A stretch of DNA of 64,000 nucleotides from an uncultured Candidatus Saccharibacteria bacterium (GTDB taxonomy: Bacteria; Patescibacteriota; Saccharimonadia; Saccharimonadales; Saccharimonadaceae). The position numbers and the translations under genes were made by a program. The notes beneath the pieces are model-generated. The model did no database searches, was not told the origin of the DNA, and saw nothing but the letters and a program-made list of their open reading frames with translations. Shown piece after piece: positions 9,787-17,147 of this stretch. The stretch lies in the NCBI GenBank assembly GCA_964557445.1, contig CAZLAF010000002.1, forward strand, positions 9,695 to 73,694, written 5' to 3'. Position 1 is the first letter of the stretch. Each line of letters begins with the position of its first letter.

Positions 9787-10815
9787 ATGGAGCCAGACAA
9801 AAACACAGCACCGACAGAAGACGAAACGCCGACCGAAGAAGCACCGGTCGAGCAAGACGTGCCCGCAGATGCGTTGAGCCTCACCCCCGATGAACTCGAG
9901 GAAGAGCAAGCTGTCAAAGACATAGCCAAGGAAAACAGCACGTCCACTGAGCCTGATGAGAAAAAAGTTTCGCCACTCAAGCAGTTTTTCCGTCGCTTCA
10001 ATGTCTATTTCTTATTCTTTTTACTGGTCGTTGCTATCGGCGCGGTTGTCACGGCTGTTAATTATTTTAACGCTCAAAAAGCACCCGAAGAACCAACCGT
10101 TGCCAGCCAAGAACTTACCGAAGACGCCCTCAAGCAGCTCGCCAACACCGATGCGACCGTTGGCGGTTCTGCGCAAACGCTTACGATTCAAGGCAACGCC
10201 ATTATCGCAGGCCAAACACTCATGCGTGGCAATCTCAATATCGCAGGCAACCTACAGACTGGTGGTAGTATTCAGGGGCCAAGCCTGACGATATCTGGTC
10301 AAACCAATCTAGCTGATACGCAAATCAATAGCCTGCAAGTTGCGACCAATACTGCTATCCAAGGTAGCACAACGCTTCGTGACCTATCTGTATCAGGAGC
10401 ATCATCGTTTAGCGGCGCTATGACCGCATCACAGATCACCGTTACTCGGCTCATACTGAGCGGCAATGCTACTTTGCAAATCCCCAACCATATTAGCTTT
10501 ACCGGCCCAACACCAAGTCGCAGCATTAACTCTGGTGTACTAGGTAGCGGTGGCACGGCCTCAATCAATGGCTCGGACACAACTGGTACAGTCAATATCA
10601 ACACCGGCAACAATCCGTCAGCAGGCTGCTTTGTTCAGGTTACCTTCAACCAGCGCTTCAGTAATCAACCCCATGTGCTTATTAGTCCTGTCGGCGCGGC
10701 TGCTGGTCAAACACAGCACTATGTCACACGTACCAATGCTGGATTTAGTATTTGTAGCGCCAATGCAGCACCAGCCAACCAATCATTTGCCTTTGACTAC
10801 TTTGTGACAAACTAA
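9787..10815 (+). CDS. membrane-anchored extracytoplasmic beta-helix (bactofilin-like repeat) protein with a lectin-like C-terminal domain
   Basis: Acidic N-terminus, one TM helix (VYFLFFLLVVAIGAVVTAV), then degenerate repeats such as GNAIIAGQTLMRGNLNIAGNLQTGGSIQG... Confidence 0.45.
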   Translation: MEPDKNTAPTEDETPTEEAPVEQDVPADALSLTPDELEEEQAVKDIAKENSTSTEPDEKKVSPLKQFFRRFNVYFLFFLLVVAIGAVVTAVNYFNAQKAPEEPTVASQELTEDALKQLANTDATVGGSAQTLTIQGNAIIAGQTLMRGNLNIAGNLQTGGSIQGPSLTISGQTNLADTQINSLQVATNTAIQGSTTLRDLSVSGASSFSGAMTASQITVTRLILSGNATLQIPNHISFTGPTPSRSINSGVLGSGGTASINGSDTTGTVNINTGNNPSAGCFVQVTFNQRFSNQPHVLISPVGAAAGQTQHYVTRTNAGFSICSANAAPANQSFAFDYFVTN

Positions 10816-11123
10816 ACGTCCATAAAAACGACGACACTATCGGCTTTAACATGCATTAATGCGCGGTGTACCTTGACAATTTTTTCACCTTCCGAGCTTA
10901 CAATTTTGAGACTGCACGGAACAAGCATACAAAGAAAATTACGATGACGTGGCAATATATCAAATGGCCCCGTTTCGTTAACGGCACTCACACTATAGGC
11001 AGTGCCTTCGTAGTACATCTTAAATGGTGCGTACACCTTGACTGACATCGTAGGCTTGCCAACACTATCTACCAGCGCCTGCTCGGCCTCACTCACCTCA
11101 GCTTTTTCGGGATCGCTCACCAT
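10812..11123 (-). CDS. atpC: F1 ATPase epsilon subunit, beta-sandwich domain only
   Basis: Position directly after beta. Motif GPFDILPRHRNFLCML resembles G-x-GILPGHAPLL. There is no C-terminal helical hairpin. Confidence 0.7.
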   Translation of the reverse strand: MVSDPEKAEVSEAEQALVDSVGKPTMSVKVYAPFKMYYEGTAYSVSAVNETGPFDILPRHRNFLCMLVPCSLKIVSSEGEKIVKVHRALMHVKADSVVVFMDV

Positions 11124-11128
11124 AAAAA

Positions 11129-12556
11129 CTACCCCTCATCTACTGTTTTAGCTTCGCCCGCCTCTGGCGCAGCTGCAGCCGGATTAGCCGTCTGAGATAC
11201 CGGCTTCACTTTTTCTGTTTTGCCGATAATCGCCTCGACACCATCAAGCGTCTGTTCGCGATTGATATGCTCACCAGGAACACCGGTTACTTTTTCCATT
11301 ACATTAAACCGCTGCTTGAAAAACTCTATCAACTGCTTGGCTTTGTTGTAGTCATCACGGTCTTCGTTTGACAGCTCAGACTCACCGATGATAGCGATGA
11401 TACCTTTGAGTGATTCGTATTTTTGCAAAATAGCCGTCGATCGAGTGGCGAGGTCATAATGCCGTTCGCCCACTACTTCTGGTGTCAAAAGGCTTGATTT
11501 GGAGGCTAAAATATCAACCGCCGGTCGAATACCCTGAGCAGCCACAGCACGCGATAGCACAATCGTACTATCCAGCTCGTGCTGAATCATCTGCACTGCC
11601 GGATCACTAAGGTCATCGGCGGGCACATAGATAGTTTGCAATGCTGTAATCGAACCGTTTTCATTGCTGGCTAAACGATCTTGGAAAGTCTTAACATCAC
11701 TAAATACCGTTGGCTGATAGCCACCCTCGGCTGGTGTTTGATCGATAATCGTCGATACCTCGTTTCGCGCCTGAATATAGCGATACATATTGTCAGCAAA
11801 TAGCAGCACGTCTTTTTTCTGGTCGTCACGGAAGTATTCGGCCAAAGTAATAGCGCTCAGACCGATCAAACTACGTTGCACTGGATTTTCATTCATCTGA
11901 CCAAAAAACATTGCCGTTGTCTTTAGGAGGTCGTTATCTTCGAGAGTTTTGTAGAGCTCATGACCTTCACGAATACGCTCACCAATACCGGCGAACATAC
12001 TAATTGCACCAGAACCCTCGGCAACGTTATTGATAATCTCCATCGTGAGCACTGTCTTACCGACACCAGCACCACCAACGATACCAATCTTGCGACCTTT
12101 GACAAATGGTGTGAAAAAATCAAGCACCTTGAGACCCGTCTCGAGCACATCGTCGGGACGGTTTACCAAACTTGTTTCCTGGTAGGCTGGCGCAAAAATA
12201 GGCCGCTTTGGCATATCCGCGAGCGTCGCATCATCGAGCTGTGGCTTGCCGTCAATTGGGCGACCCATTGCATCCCATACGCGCCCAATCATAGCATCGC
12301 CAACCGGAATCTCAAGACTACGACCACTCCGAGTCACCGCATCACCTTTTTGAATACTATAATCGCCGCCGATATTCAAACATACTGCCGTGTCGCCACC
12401 AGTAAGACTACTGACCAGTAGGGGAGACTTCTTCTCGTTATCAACATACAGCATCTCATTGAGACCGGGCATGTCCTCGTCAAATCGAACCTTGATGACG
12501 ATTCCCTTGAGACTCCTGACGACACCTTTTTTGTATACCGATTGCTGTTCGCTCAT
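11129..12556 (-). CDS. atpD: F1 ATPase beta subunit
   Basis: Walker [26 protein letters not shown] and a DELSEED-like [12 protein letters not shown] overlap with gamma. Confidence 0.92.
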
Positions 12557-15489: not shown

Positions 15490-16253
15490 AGGGCTATATC
15501 GTCCACAATAGCTTTTTTACTAGCTTCCATTTGTTTGATAATCGACGGCAGTTGCGCCTTGAGGTCGTACTGATCGCCAACCGCTTGCAACAAATAATGC
15601 TCGATAATCTGAGCCATGTTATTTTCAAATGCATCAACCAACATATCTTGCTGGTCGGACACGCCTTTTTGTAGCAATACCGAAAGCTGCTGGTGTTGCT
15701 CTTGTACCGCTTGCGCACTCTGACTCAGCGACTGTAGAGCTACATTTTGCGCATCTTTAATAGAAGCAATCCGCGCTTTGTTTTCCTCGAGTGCACCGGT
15801 CAGCATCGCGTCTTGACTAGCAATGCTGCGCTCGAGCGCCAATCCAAGCTGGCGATGTTGCTCTTCGAGCGCCTGAGCACTACGCTGTAAAGCTTGCAAG
15901 GCAGCGTCTTGCGCCTCCCTTAATGTCTTGTCGTACTCAGCAAACCGATCATCAAGTTGCTTAGCGATATGCTCTTTTAGTTGAGCATTTACTTTGTTGA
16001 TCTCTTCAAACTGCGAATCAAGCTGACGAGCAACGCGTTGACGCAACTCTGTGTTGACATGCGCCACAGTTGCATCAAGGTCTTGTTTGAACAAAGCGGC
16101 GTTTTCGTTTATCACACGTTCAAAATGTAAACGACCCCTATCCTTGAGCTCCTCGCGGAACGCATCGTCAAACAGCAATGCGACCGCTGCCGCCTCTTCG
16201 GGCGTCCCTTGTTGTGTATCTTGTTTACGTTGAAATAATCCCATTTTGCCCAC
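15486..16253 (-). CDS. coiled-coil protein in the b-subunit position, lacking any TM helix; contains an internal tandem repeat
   Basis: 255 aa, Q/E/A/L-rich heptad-like sequence. The N-terminus MGKMGLFQRKQDTQQG... is hydrophilic. GTG start at 16253, or ATG at 16244. Confidence 0.55.
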   Translation of the reverse strand: MGKMGLFQRKQDTQQGTPEEAAAVALLFDDAFREELKDRGRLHFERVINENAALFKQDLDATVAHVNTELRQRVARQLDSQFEEINKVNAQLKEHIAKQLDDRFAEYDKTLREAQDAALQALQRSAQALEEQHRQLGLALERSIASQDAMLTGALEENKARIASIKDAQNVALQSLSQSAQAVQEQHQQLSVLLQKGVSDQQDMLVDAFENNMAQIIEHYLLQAVGDQYDLKAQLPSIIKQMEASKKAIVDDIAL

Positions 16254-17096
16254 CTATAATCTCAGTAGTAAATATACCGCAAATAGACCAATAATTAAAA
16301 TCAAGAAGCTTGTCAGCACAATCTCAAGCAGCGCTCGAAAGATTGATTTCTTTGACATCGGATTGCGACCGATAGAGATAATGCTGTTGCGCACACCTGC
16401 ATACAGTACTGAGAGCGCCGTAATAAGGCTTACTGCAGTAATCGCTAGGCTAATATATATTCTGATTGGACTCACTTCTTTTTCAGCAATCGCCTGACCA
16501 ATACGCTCCAAAAACTCAGGCACCTCTACTTTGGTGCTCTTTTCATTGGGATTGCGTTTGATATCAATTGTGACTGGCACCATACCGAGTGTCACCGATT
16601 TGTTTGTTCGCCCTTCGGTATCTTTGAGCGTCGCCGTCCCCAGTGTCACACCCTTGCCATCGAACGCACCATAGGCGCGACCAAACACTGTTTTTTCCTC
16701 AGTCCCAGCCTTCATAGCAACACCGTTAATCGACGACAGCGTCACATGATCACCAACCGCAATCGAACCACCTTGAGTACTCACAAGCACATTATAAGTC
16801 CCCGATGCGGCCACAAATGTCTCGTTTTCTAGCCCCTCGCTCGTCAGGGTAAATGGCAGCTGATTGCGATCAACTGTCACACCGAACATATTTTGTAGCT
16901 CAGCCTGTGAGGCTACCTTGACGCGATCGCTATCCTTGCCAGTCAGCTGCACTATCGTACCAGTGTCGAGAGCTGTGTCGGTTGCATAGCCCTGTACGCT
17001 TCCGCCCCCATAACTTGCGCCAAGCACAGGTAGAGAGGCGCTGGCAGTAATACCAACGGCAATCATAAGACCAACAATGATCCGATTTGCTTTCAT
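16254..17096 (-). CDS. secreted-domain protein ending in a two-helix hairpin that resembles an ATP-synthase c subunit
   Basis: Signal peptide MKANRIIVGLMIAVGITASASLPVLGA, an extracytoplasmic domain of about 190 aa, then ISLAITAVSLITALSVLYAGV-RNSIISIGRNPMSKKS-IFRALLEIVLTSFLILIIGLFAVYLLL. It is the first gene of the ATPase operon. Confidence 0.45.
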   Translation of the reverse strand: MKANRIIVGLMIAVGITASASLPVLGASYGGGSVQGYATDTALDTGTIVQLTGKDSDRVKVASQAELQNMFGVTVDRNQLPFTLTSEGLENETFVAASGTYNVLVSTQGGSIAVGDHVTLSSINGVAMKAGTEEKTVFGRAYGAFDGKGVTLGTATLKDTEGRTNKSVTLGMVPVTIDIKRNPNEKSTKVEVPEFLERIGQAIAEKEVSPIRIYISLAITAVSLITALSVLYAGVRNSIISIGRNPMSKKSIFRALLEIVLTSFLILIIGLFAVYLLLRL

Positions 17097-17138
17097 TGTT
17101 TGTTTATCTTCCCCCTATACGCTCCCGGCGTTAGGCTC

Positions 17139-17147
17139 ATTATACCA
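17139..17147 (-). promoter_or_regulatory. extended -10 element TGgTATAAT, candidate promoter of the ATPase operon
   Basis: The reverse complement of attatacca is TGGTATAAT. The leader is about 42 nt and carries a GGGGGAAG SD before ATG 17096. Confidence 0.5.

Follow-up and report, generated by a model that had tools for sequence, protein, structure and literature searches.

A putative second, Fo-less F1-like ATPase of Saccharimonadia encoded beside surface fibre and Pam pilus genes

Introduction

F1-like ATPases that lack an Fo sector are regarded as specific to mycoplasmas (PMC12994834). Both the Type 2 and the Type 3 enzymes of these bacteria have a subunit in which a signal peptide is combined with an ectodomain and two C-terminal transmembrane (TM) helices (PMC12994834), and Type 3 is needed for the MIB-MIP system, which cleaves antibodies at the cell surface (PMC12994834, PMC3369863). 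The genes of this Type 3 F1-like X0 ATPase include MSC_0618/0619 and MMCAP2_0575-0581, with MMCAP2_0577 encoding the subunit of this topology. No paper linking an F1-like ATPase to Saccharibacteria, Patescibacteria or the Candidate Phyla Radiation (CPR) was found in the searchable literature. Here we describe a seven-gene F1-like cluster from an uncultured Candidatus Saccharibacteria bacterium, located in a stretch of 64,000 nucleotides (contig CAZLAF010000002.1, positions 9,695 to 73,694; assembly GCA_964557445.1), which is referred to throughout as the window and to which all coordinates below refer.

Another described system adjoins the cluster. The Pam pilus operon was described in 2026 for Candidatus Mycosynbacter amalyticus (Pam preprint), where 'ATP synthase components' flank the pam genes. 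These components were read as serving ATP production, and no dedicated machinery was thought necessary.

On a modest balance of probability, we consider the cluster of the window to encode a second F1-like ATPase of Saccharimonadia that has no Fo, is a paralogue of the housekeeping F1Fo enzyme and acts as an ATP-hydrolysing motor, working via the product of its first gene (ORF1) on surface filaments.

Organization and conservation of the gene cluster

The cluster comprises seven closely packed, translationally coupled open reading frames (ORFs) on the minus strand, running from 17096 to 10812:

17139-17147, minus strand: extended -10 promoter-like sequence TGGTATAAT, a consensus match only
16254-17096, minus strand: ORF1 (280 aa), in the atpE slot, proposed rotor or membrane partner
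15486-16253, minus strand: b-like peripheral-stalk protein (252-255 aa), an all-helical coiled coil
14974-15489, minus strand: delta/OSCP-like subunit (171 aa), assigned from weak Pfam and NCBIfam matches and an orthologue profile
13419-14981, minus strand: F1 alpha-like subunit (520 aa), ATP-synt_ab
12553-13422, minus strand: F1 gamma-like subunit (289 aa), Pfam ATP-synt
11129-12556, minus strand: F1 beta-like catalytic subunit (475 aa), ATP-synt_ab
10812-11123, minus strand: epsilon-like subunit (103 aa), Pfam ATP-synt_DE_N

The order given in an initial annotation of this DNA (b-position protein, delta, alpha, gamma, beta, epsilon) was recovered, with ORF1 ahead of these genes, as were the four overlaps listed there, which appear both in the ORFs and in gene calls: beta/gamma at 12553-12556, gamma/alpha at 13419-13422, alpha/delta at 14974-14981 and delta/b-like at 15486-15489. 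Since the alpha/delta overlap is of 8 nt, alpha must start at 14981 and not at the upstream GTG at 15038. The former start was also chosen by independent gene calls, and it is the sole start that fits the N-terminal conservation, because the upstream extension carries stop codons in relatives. The sequence TGGTATAAT, which had been proposed as the operon promoter, is present on the minus strand about 42 nt 5' of the ORF1 start codon and is followed by the ribosome-binding site GGGGGAAG. It was found by direct reading, being absent from the list of the promoter scan because it has no good -35 element.

We collected 80 genome loci and 80 metagenome loci with ORF1 relatives. Carriers of the cluster with complete genomes include CP011211.1, CP075337.1 (TM7i), CP045921.1 (M. 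amalyticus) and JAUCSD010000001.1. The seven-gene arrangement of ORF1, b-like, delta, alpha, gamma, beta and epsilon recurs in these relatives wherever the flanking sequence suffices, and ORF1 adjoins F1 genes in 110 of the 115 informative loci, down to 28% identity of ORF1 and about 52% identity of beta. Within the clade of the window, identities are 78-93% for beta, 70-90% for alpha, 57-80% for ORF1, 34-63% for delta and 26-67% for the b-like protein.

Several individual loci deserve description. The metagenome-assembled genome (MAG) CAYVSX01 holds two full ORF1-F1-like clusters on different contigs (L018 and L065); a true duplication is one possible explanation, and strain heterogeneity or a binning artefact are others. 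One locus (L163) is rearranged, with delta, alpha, gamma, beta and epsilon 5' of ORF1 on the opposite strand and no b-like gene detected. Another (L170), on a 180-kb contig labelled Candidatus Woesebacteria, has genes for a MazE antitoxin and an MFS transporter ahead of the cluster, the same pair that was reported to the left of pam in M. amalyticus, and a 3405-aa Beta_helix/Kelch protein after it; the label hints at a presence outside Saccharimonadia, or at mis-binning.

The F1 head

Alpha and beta match Pfam ATP-synt_ab with E values of 1e-61 and 2.5e-66, respectively, and the C-domain of alpha gives a Pfam match at E 1.9e-7. Gamma, reported earlier as present, matches Pfam ATP-synt (E 2e-23). 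Epsilon matches ATP-synt_DE_N at residues 26-102 (E 4.7e-11), i.e. over the N-terminal beta-sandwich domain only; its length of 103 aa, which is also the median across 60 complete clusters, and its single domain agree with the earlier statement that the regulatory C-terminal helices are missing.

Beta had been judged catalytically competent, and its Walker A and catalytic motifs and the SELSNED segment are indeed present in the sequence. It retains the adenine-stacking Tyr (IYVPADD) and aligns over almost its full length with F1 beta chains in the Protein Data Bank (PDB; best 362.6 bits). The Walker A motif of alpha reads GDSKVGKT and its arginine finger SVTRVG; both the catalytic residues of beta and the alpha arginine finger of canonical F1 are thus found in the window proteins. 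The N-terminal helix of alpha is short, with about 13 residues ahead of the beta-barrel, and the K/E/A-rich tail of about 45 aa noted earlier lies at the C-terminus. Among lineages such tails differ in length, with no obvious correlation.

The 60 complete clusters preserve GGAGVGKT (in 59), GER[IV]RE (in all 60) and the alpha motif SV[TS]RVG (in 55), and their neighbouring genes overlap by 4 or 1 nt. Judged by these conserved motifs and gene overlaps, the cluster encodes a functional enzyme under selection.

Family scores were taken from NCBIfam, as a proxy in place of a phylogeny of alpha and beta. All four head subunits fall short of the curated cut-offs: atpA scores 359 (cut-off 484), atpD (TIGR01039) 437 (463), gamma (TIGR01146) 67.7 (194) and epsilon 31 (67). 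Moreover, alpha and beta are under the cut-offs of every NCBIfam F1 family, including those of the N-ATPase and the two mycoplasma F1-like families, and the alpha and beta proteins from two distant orthologous clusters (L084 and L116) are likewise under the atpA and atpD cut-offs.

A set of genes probably separate from the housekeeping ATP synthase

The absence of channel subunits, claimed in the initial annotation, was upheld within the 64 kb. A TM scan of all ORFs, followed by a Pfam search of the polytopic ones, gave no a subunit; the polytopic proteins found were an ABC-2 permease, Wzy_C, GtrA/PMT and OpgC proteins and sugar transferases. The c-subunit hidden Markov model (HMM) matches nothing in the window, and with the same HMM no canonical c subunit was found in 2 Mb of related loci. 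Neither did any of about 170 loci, or the genes called around related clusters, yield an a-subunit homologue.

Such an absence could mean that the housekeeping ATP synthase is split, the cluster being its sole F1 sector and atpB, atpE and a TM-bearing atpF lying elsewhere. This was one of two readings offered by the initial annotation, and besides the lack of a or c genes within 64 kb it can draw on the public databases (NCBI, JGI), which name the beta subunit of the cluster 'F0F1 ATP synthase subunit beta' or 'F-type H+/Na+-transporting ATPase subunit beta'. Against it stand genomes in which the canonical enzyme is encoded on its own. Southlakia epibionticum ML1 has a complete canonical operon with its own F1 genes, for AtpI, a, c (70 aa), b (179 aa), delta, alpha, gamma, beta and epsilon (SEML1_0349-0358); the tables for its whole genome, which span all genes, contain only two PF00006 proteins. 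The canonical subunits of this bacterium match Pfam far better than those of the window (gamma, E 3.5e-82 vs 2e-23; alpha C-domain, 4.9e-45 vs 1.9e-7; epsilon, 1.7e-21 vs 4.7e-11). Rhodopsin-bearing Saccharibacteria genomes all have a complete ATP synthase cluster with H+-type c subunits.

The abundant AtpA and AtpD proteins of M. amalyticus are QHN42722 and QHN42726, with three genes between them, and its Pam proteins are QHN43268-43274. By accession order atpA and atpD lie about 550 genes away from pam, and we infer that the genome has both a canonical and an F1-like set. A second beta did not turn up in the 2 Mb fetched around ORF1 relatives, and a search with the most divergent F1-like beta (from L116) gave F1-like orthologues only. 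Because Southlakia and, by inference, M. amalyticus have a separate canonical operon, we regard the cluster as a paralogous F1-like set and not as one half of a split operon. The same conclusion is favoured by the scores of all F1 subunits, which lie under the curated cut-offs, and by the fact that the cluster owns b-like and delta-like genes and has a dedicated ORF1 in the c slot at the 110 of 115 loci mentioned above. A split operon is therefore a very unlikely explanation of this cluster.

The peripheral stalk

Taken as a single sequence, the delta-like protein matches Pfam OSCP (E 5.5e-4) and the NCBIfam delta family (E 1.8e-5), in both cases under the cut-off, and the same weak delta/OSCP match was obtained with the distant L116 orthologue. 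A profile built from 11 orthologues, searched against PDB, matches almost solely delta/OSCP chains (best E 1.7e-4): the top 18 matches are all delta/OSCP, one of them being a delta-alpha fusion construct. This orthologue profile confirms, at the level of sequence, that the 171-aa protein is a delta/OSCP homologue.

The b-position protein had been said to have no TM helix, and the TM scan confirmed this. Its C-terminal block is conserved (consensus FE.NMA.I..HY.L.A.G.Q.DL). In most other lineages the b-like orthologue is about 205 aa long and is built like subunit b, with a TM helix at the N-terminus and a long helix after it. Alignment with the proteins of L084, L116 and other loci shows that in the clade of the window the TM segment was lost and a coiled-coil stretch of about 80 aa became duplicated, so that the anchorless protein is a derived state, produced by a clade-specific loss. 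The b-like profile gave no significant match to subunit b in PDB (E 0.23), only coiled-coil noise. No correlation was found between the loss of the TM helix and the length of alpha or of the cytoplasmic tail of tm342, a fibre protein encoded next to epsilon (described below).

ORF1, the candidate membrane partner

In the initial annotation, the 280-aa protein occupying the positions of atpB and atpE was described as a secreted-domain protein. It does carry a signal peptide and an ectodomain, but it is also a membrane protein: according to hydropathy, the signal peptide (residues 5-28) is complemented by two C-terminal TM helices (approximately 208-236 and 250-280). In a single-chain AlphaFold2 (AF2) model, based on 51 diverse family members (mean pLDDT 91.4, pTM 0.71), a beta-rich ectodomain (34-181) is joined through an amphipathic helix (194-204) to a hairpin of two helices (210-244 and 246-279), with the turn at R244-N245-P246. 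The cytoplasmic turn, G243-R244-N245-P246, is the sole invariant stretch of the ORF1 family, which spans sequences down to about 30% identity. Because of the signal peptide and the ectodomain the N-terminus is placed outside the cell; the loop is cytoplasmic and the C-terminus again external, a topology that matches a c subunit.

A profile of 35 ORF1 hairpins had exactly one match among 177,635 PDB sequences, subunit c of the Chloroflexus ATP synthase (E 0.017), in an alignment covering the loop (AIGRNP) and helix 2. Among the 50 PDB matches listed by Foldseek, F-type c subunits alone gave a compact and close fit to the hairpin, over 63-67 residues with an rmsd of 1.1-2.9 A and a TM-score of up to 0.90; fits to c subunits with a TM-score of 0.8-0.9 had an rmsd of 1.1-1.5 A. 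In position, topology, shape and loop, the ORF1 hairpin is c-like, and it may be related to subunit c by descent. A pilin of the VirB2/TrbC type was also considered and rejected: one hairpin matched T4SS_pilin (E 0.014), but there was no pilin structure among the 50 listed Foldseek matches, compared with many c subunits.

The residue of ORF1 that aligns with the carboxylate of canonical c subunits is hydrophobic, and the glycine-rich motif of c-subunit helix 1 is missing from the hairpin (as read by eye). From this alignment we conclude that the hairpin would be unable to carry protons in the canonical manner. No canonical ion path can be seen, as the hairpin is devoid of the carboxylate and an a subunit is missing. 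A ring of ORF1 might still move ions unconventionally, together with the TM helix of the b-like protein or an unlinked partner, and the retention of that helix in most lineages and the glutamate E258, invariant among the close relatives of the window, could be cited for such a pump or synthase. E258 is, however, replaced by Q or another residue across the wider ORF1 family, the b-like TM helix was lost in the clade of the window while the cluster was kept, and epsilon has no regulatory helices; together with the hydrophobic residue at the carboxylate position and the lack of an a-subunit homologue at all of the approximately 170 loci, this makes an ion-translocating enzyme decidedly improbable.

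The ectodomain resembles phage proteins in structure. In a Foldseek comparison with PDB, the modelled domain matched decoration proteins of phage capsids and a C-terminal fragment of phi29 gp12 (E about 1e-4), and stronger matches were found in BFVD, with a 'preneck appendage protein' at E 1.3e-9 and the C-terminal ~150 aa of many large tail-fibre and tail-spike proteins (rmsd 2.6-3.7 A). According to the model, the ectodomain faces outward and has the fold of the C-terminal domains of phage tail fibres and tail spikes. The C-terminal domain of phi29 gp12 is a trimerisation 'autochaperone' that needs ATP for its release.

ORF1 has 1661 relatives in a database clustered at 90% identity, which form 1100 clusters at 50% identity. 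All are unannotated, and the named organisms among them are all Saccharibacteria or Saccharimonadia. Comparison of ORF1 with NCBIfam gave nothing beyond one chance-level match to an unrelated family.

Association with surface fibres and Pam pili

The genes next to the cluster encode proteins of the cell surface:

9787-10815, plus strand, convergent, directly past epsilon: tm342, membrane-anchored fibre protein (342 aa), recognized from the ORF and conserved motifs
1269-9712, minus strand, downstream of the cluster and on the same strand: Pam pilus operon, recognized from size, order and C-terminal TM anchors
8951-9712, minus strand: PamT, by match to the M. amalyticus operon
6972-8813, minus strand: PamA, by match to the M. 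amalyticus operon
5772-6872, minus strand: PamE, by match to the M. amalyticus operon
4644-5696, minus strand: PamD, by match to the M. amalyticus operon; weak WxLIP_PGBD (DUF916) match
3662-4741, minus strand: PamR, by match to the M. amalyticus operon; PKD domain
2397-3539, minus strand: PamB, by match to the M. amalyticus operon
1269-2279, minus strand: PamC, by match to the M. amalyticus operon; weak WxLIP_PGBD (DUF916) match
17339-20005, plus strand, divergent, upstream of ORF1: surface protein with a CBM_4_9 domain (888 aa), ORF and Pfam match

The Pam names were assigned from size, order and C-terminal TM anchors, and not by direct comparison with the M. amalyticus proteins. PamT, PamA and PamE are kept beside the ATPase cluster in related loci, and the great majority of sufficiently flanked loci have tm342 and the Pam operon adjacent to it. 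In 40 of 59 clusters tm342 lies within 400 nt of epsilon. The CBM_4_9 gene adjoins ORF1 in some relatives only, having been detected at 27 of the 80 genome loci.

The tm342 protein has a cytoplasmic N-terminal motif (D28-A-L-S-x-T-P..L, in which D28, A29, L30, S31, T33, P34 and L37 are invariant), the sequence RFF, a single TM helix, extracellular repeats and a C-terminal beta domain. The repeat region is taken as a beta-helix on the basis of the predicted strands and the repeats in its sequence. The tm342 protein probably is an associated component and corresponds to the 'tail fibre-like' protein mentioned in the Pam preprint.

In other lineages, ORF1-like genes are followed by fibre relatives that share this N-terminal module and range in length from 244 aa to more than 3000 aa. 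The module starts with 'ME(N/P)(K/D)..' or 'ENKDQ' and continues with '[D/E/N]..LS.xP[D/E]', 'RFF[K/R]' and a single TM helix (window, L129, L143, L154, L161, L164 and L165); from its sequence, it resembles a signal that a cytoplasmic partner would use for docking or sorting. In more distant lineages, fibre proteins of more than 1600 aa are encoded after the cluster, in one case a protein of 3405 aa with Beta_helix and Kelch domains.

A shared cytoplasmic module on fibre proteins of such different sizes would also suit an ATPase of the export or unfoldase type, comparable to FliI-FliH-FliJ. ORF1 would then be a static dock, and the F1 head, tethered by b/delta, would act on the giant fibre proteins via their cytoplasmic motif and aid their insertion or export, without turning a ring. 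F1 and the ATPase complexes of type III secretion systems (T3SS) are homologous, and the b-like protein of the window's clade has no TM helix, as in FliH. This explanation appears unlikely, since the head is of a true alpha/beta heterohexamer type with gamma and epsilon, and models of FliI/SctN score far lower; in addition, the invariant GRNP loop and the c-like hairpin suggest a ring on which gamma and epsilon dock, and the Pam pilins, and presumably the fibres, have Sec-type signals or anchors of their own.

Fibre or pilus genes neighbour the cluster in every lineage examined, in differing orientations; the constant companions of ORF1 are the F1-like motor inside the cell and fibres outside. 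It is conceivable that this is inherited synteny without a functional link, and that a real F1-like ATPase serves some other task, e.g. a cytoplasmic or regulatory one. Many of the loci come from related Saccharimonadia, in which gene order is generally conserved; the ATPase and pam operons are apparently separate transcription units with a convergent gene between them, and Pam genes were undetected near the most divergent clusters. However, ORF1 has an extracellular domain, and part of the machine is therefore outside the cell. The differing orientations in which fibre proteins flank the cluster also speak against mere inheritance of gene order, as does the observation that ORF1-like genes stay beside such genes even where F1 genes are missing: they adjoin pam pilins (L082/L083), a tm342 homologue (L089) or giant fibre genes (L143, L161 and L165). 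We hold a purely positional association to be rather unlikely.

A 223-aa protein encoded at 20689-21360 (minus strand) has a weak DUF4307 match (E 7e-4, under the cut-off). In many distant loci (L096, L119, L136, L144, L168 and others) its counterpart lies just upstream of ORF1 on the opposite strand, and the protein may belong to the system.

Proposed mechanism

If the cluster encodes a motor acting on surface filaments, ORF1 would oligomerise into a c-ring-like rotor, whose invariant GRNP loops would hold the foot formed by gamma and epsilon. The enzyme would work in the hydrolysis direction only, which fits an epsilon without inhibitory helices. Hydrolysis of ATP would rotate or crank the ORF1 ring against the delta/b stalk, and the motion would cross the membrane to the ectodomains, which in turn would act on neighbouring filaments, for example to fold, release, assemble or move the fibre and perhaps the Pam pili as well. 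ATP for work of this kind is not available on the outside of the cell. The proposed mechanism mirrors the model put forward for the Type 2 and Type 3 enzymes of mycoplasmas. The most far-reaching form of this proposal, a proton-independent rotary machine in which the F1 head turns a ring of c-like hairpins bearing fibre-chaperone-like ectodomains and so converts cytoplasmic ATP into torque or cranking outside the cell, for both fibres and Pam pili, is put forward tentatively, as a possible but doubtful elaboration.

Several observations weigh against the motor interpretation. Pfam ATP-synt_C is matched neither by full-length ORF1 (E <= 0.1) nor by any of the 35 hairpins (E <= 10); hhalign comparison of the hairpin with nine c subunits gave a probability of 3.5%, the reciprocal search with the c-subunit HMM gave E 0.4 or worse, and c subunits other than that of Chloroflexus score E above 100 against the hairpin profile. 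A helical hairpin is a simple fold. The ORF1 model is of one chain, and a ring with gamma and epsilon is a prediction. In the clade of the window the b-like stator protein carries no membrane anchor. The AF2 model of tm342 is poor (pLDDT 61) and its Foldseek matches are not significant, and the proposed link of the motor to Pam pili and the fibre is drawn from gene neighbourhood and resemblance of folds. A canonical operon alongside the cluster is deduced from other Saccharibacteria and from the order of accessions in a proteomics table. Finally, F1 genes are missing within 10 kb of a small number of ORF1-like genes (L082, L143, L149 and L165); in these loci ORF1 may work without a motor, or the motor may be encoded elsewhere.

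The second reading of the initial annotation, an F1-like motor coupled to a non-canonical membrane partner and resembling those of mycoplasmas, fits the evidence. It had overlooked, however, that ORF1 itself is the candidate partner, that the loss of the b anchor is derived within one clade, and that the cluster is tied to Pam and fibre genes.

Other genes of the window

Two tandem ORFs of 101 aa (26678-26983 and 27165-27470, minus strand), with about three hydrophobic segments each and weak GtrII matches, adjoin an O-antigen-ligase-like gene (Wzy_C, 25308-26645). They also lie next to the gene at 27519-30215, whose 898-aa product has a signal peptide and, at its C-terminus, a TM helix. Two paralogous proteins of about 600 aa (21363-24951, minus strand) contain PG_binding_4 and Beta-lactamase2 domains, and beside their genes lies one for a small LexA-type DNA-binding protein (24974-25339, minus strand). 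The G+C content is 0.38-0.44 at about 40000-58000, compared with 0.47-0.51 elsewhere, and this block, which holds genes for glycosyltransferases, GtrA/PMT and ABC-2 proteins, may have been acquired laterally as a surface-polysaccharide island.

Significance

A design principle thought to be confined to mycoplasmas would now be seen in an unrelated and very widespread group, the Saccharimonadia. The parts found there look ancestral, in that delta, a b-like stalk and a c-like hairpin are still recognisable, and the cluster might thus represent a natural intermediate for how a rotary ATP synthase becomes a mechanical motor. The names given to its subunits in public databases point to systematic mis-annotation, which inflates the number of 'complete F-type ATPase' calls in metabolic reconstructions of CPR bacteria.

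The cluster is also a concrete candidate for powering or controlling Pam pili and giant surface fibres, filaments that may serve attachment, because these bacteria live attached to host cells. If the proton-independent rotary machine outlined above is real, it would be the third independent surface-appendage engine derived from a rotary ATPase, after flagella and the mycoplasma gliding and MIB-MIP systems, and it would supply the missing energy source of a pilus system now thought to need none. Experiments are tractable, since TM7i and M. amalyticus are cultured, transformable carriers of the cluster.

Comparison with known systems

Among known systems, the mycoplasma Type 3 ATPase is a close parallel. 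In both cases a seven-gene cluster paralogous to the housekeeping F1Fo genes encodes alpha-, beta-, gamma- and epsilon-like subunits without a or c, the N-terminal helix of alpha is shortened, and one protein combines a signal peptide with an ectodomain and two C-terminal TM helices, although the likeness of ORF1 in this respect is one of architecture only, with no sequence similarity found. Both clusters are genetically linked to a cell-surface system in a genome-reduced, host-dependent bacterium. There are also differences: the phylum is another one, and the partners here are pili and fibres instead of MIB-MIP. Alpha scores 246 against the MSC_0619 family (cut-off 520) and beta 401 against the MSC_0618 family (cut-off 570), and both score higher against canonical atpA and atpD than against these Type 3 models, reaching neither cut-off. 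The seven genes of the window hold no polytopic protein, so that the 12-TM subunit is lacking, as is the 19-kDa cytoplasmic subunit, whereas delta and the b-like stalk, absent in mycoplasmas, are kept.

The Type 2 G1-ATPase, i.e. the gliding motor of Mycoplasma mobile (MMOB1610-1670), is comparable in that an F1-like head is thought to pass force across the membrane to surface 'legs'. The beta subunit described here is devoid of the ~230-aa N-terminal extension that dimerises G1 (its match spans positions 229-667 of the MMOB1670 profile), the scores are 325 (cut-off 600) for MMOB1660 and 369 (850) for MMOB1670, and no jellyfish or chain components are known here.

With the canonical F1Fo operon (atpIBEFHAGDC) the cluster shares the order c-slot, b, delta, alpha, gamma, beta, epsilon, the catalytic motifs, delta/OSCP homology, an R-N-P hairpin in the c slot and, in most relatives, a b-like protein with an N-terminal TM helix. 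It differs in the absence of an a subunit, the truncated epsilon, the b-like protein without a TM helix in the clade of the window, the hairpin without a carboxylate fused to a secreted domain of about 170 aa, and scores of all subunits under the equivalog cut-offs. The N-ATPase (TIGR03305/TIGR03324), which is laterally mobile, is likewise a second F-type operon beside the housekeeping one, but it has a and c subunits, AtpQ/AtpR and another gene order; none of a or c is present here, and the scores are 402 (cut-off 752) and 306 (cut-off 750).

FliI-FliH-FliJ also combines an F1-related ATPase with a TM-less b/delta-like tether and serves the assembly of an extracellular filament. Its ATPase is, however, a homohexamer of one protein, with no alpha/beta pair, epsilon or c-like hairpin, and the FliI/SctN models score about 165-227 bits against cut-offs of 380 or more. 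By analogy, therefore, the cluster of the window may work like the F1-like X0 ATPases of mycoplasmas, while belonging neither to those families nor to the canonical F1Fo, N-ATPase, G1-ATPase or T3SS ATPase families.

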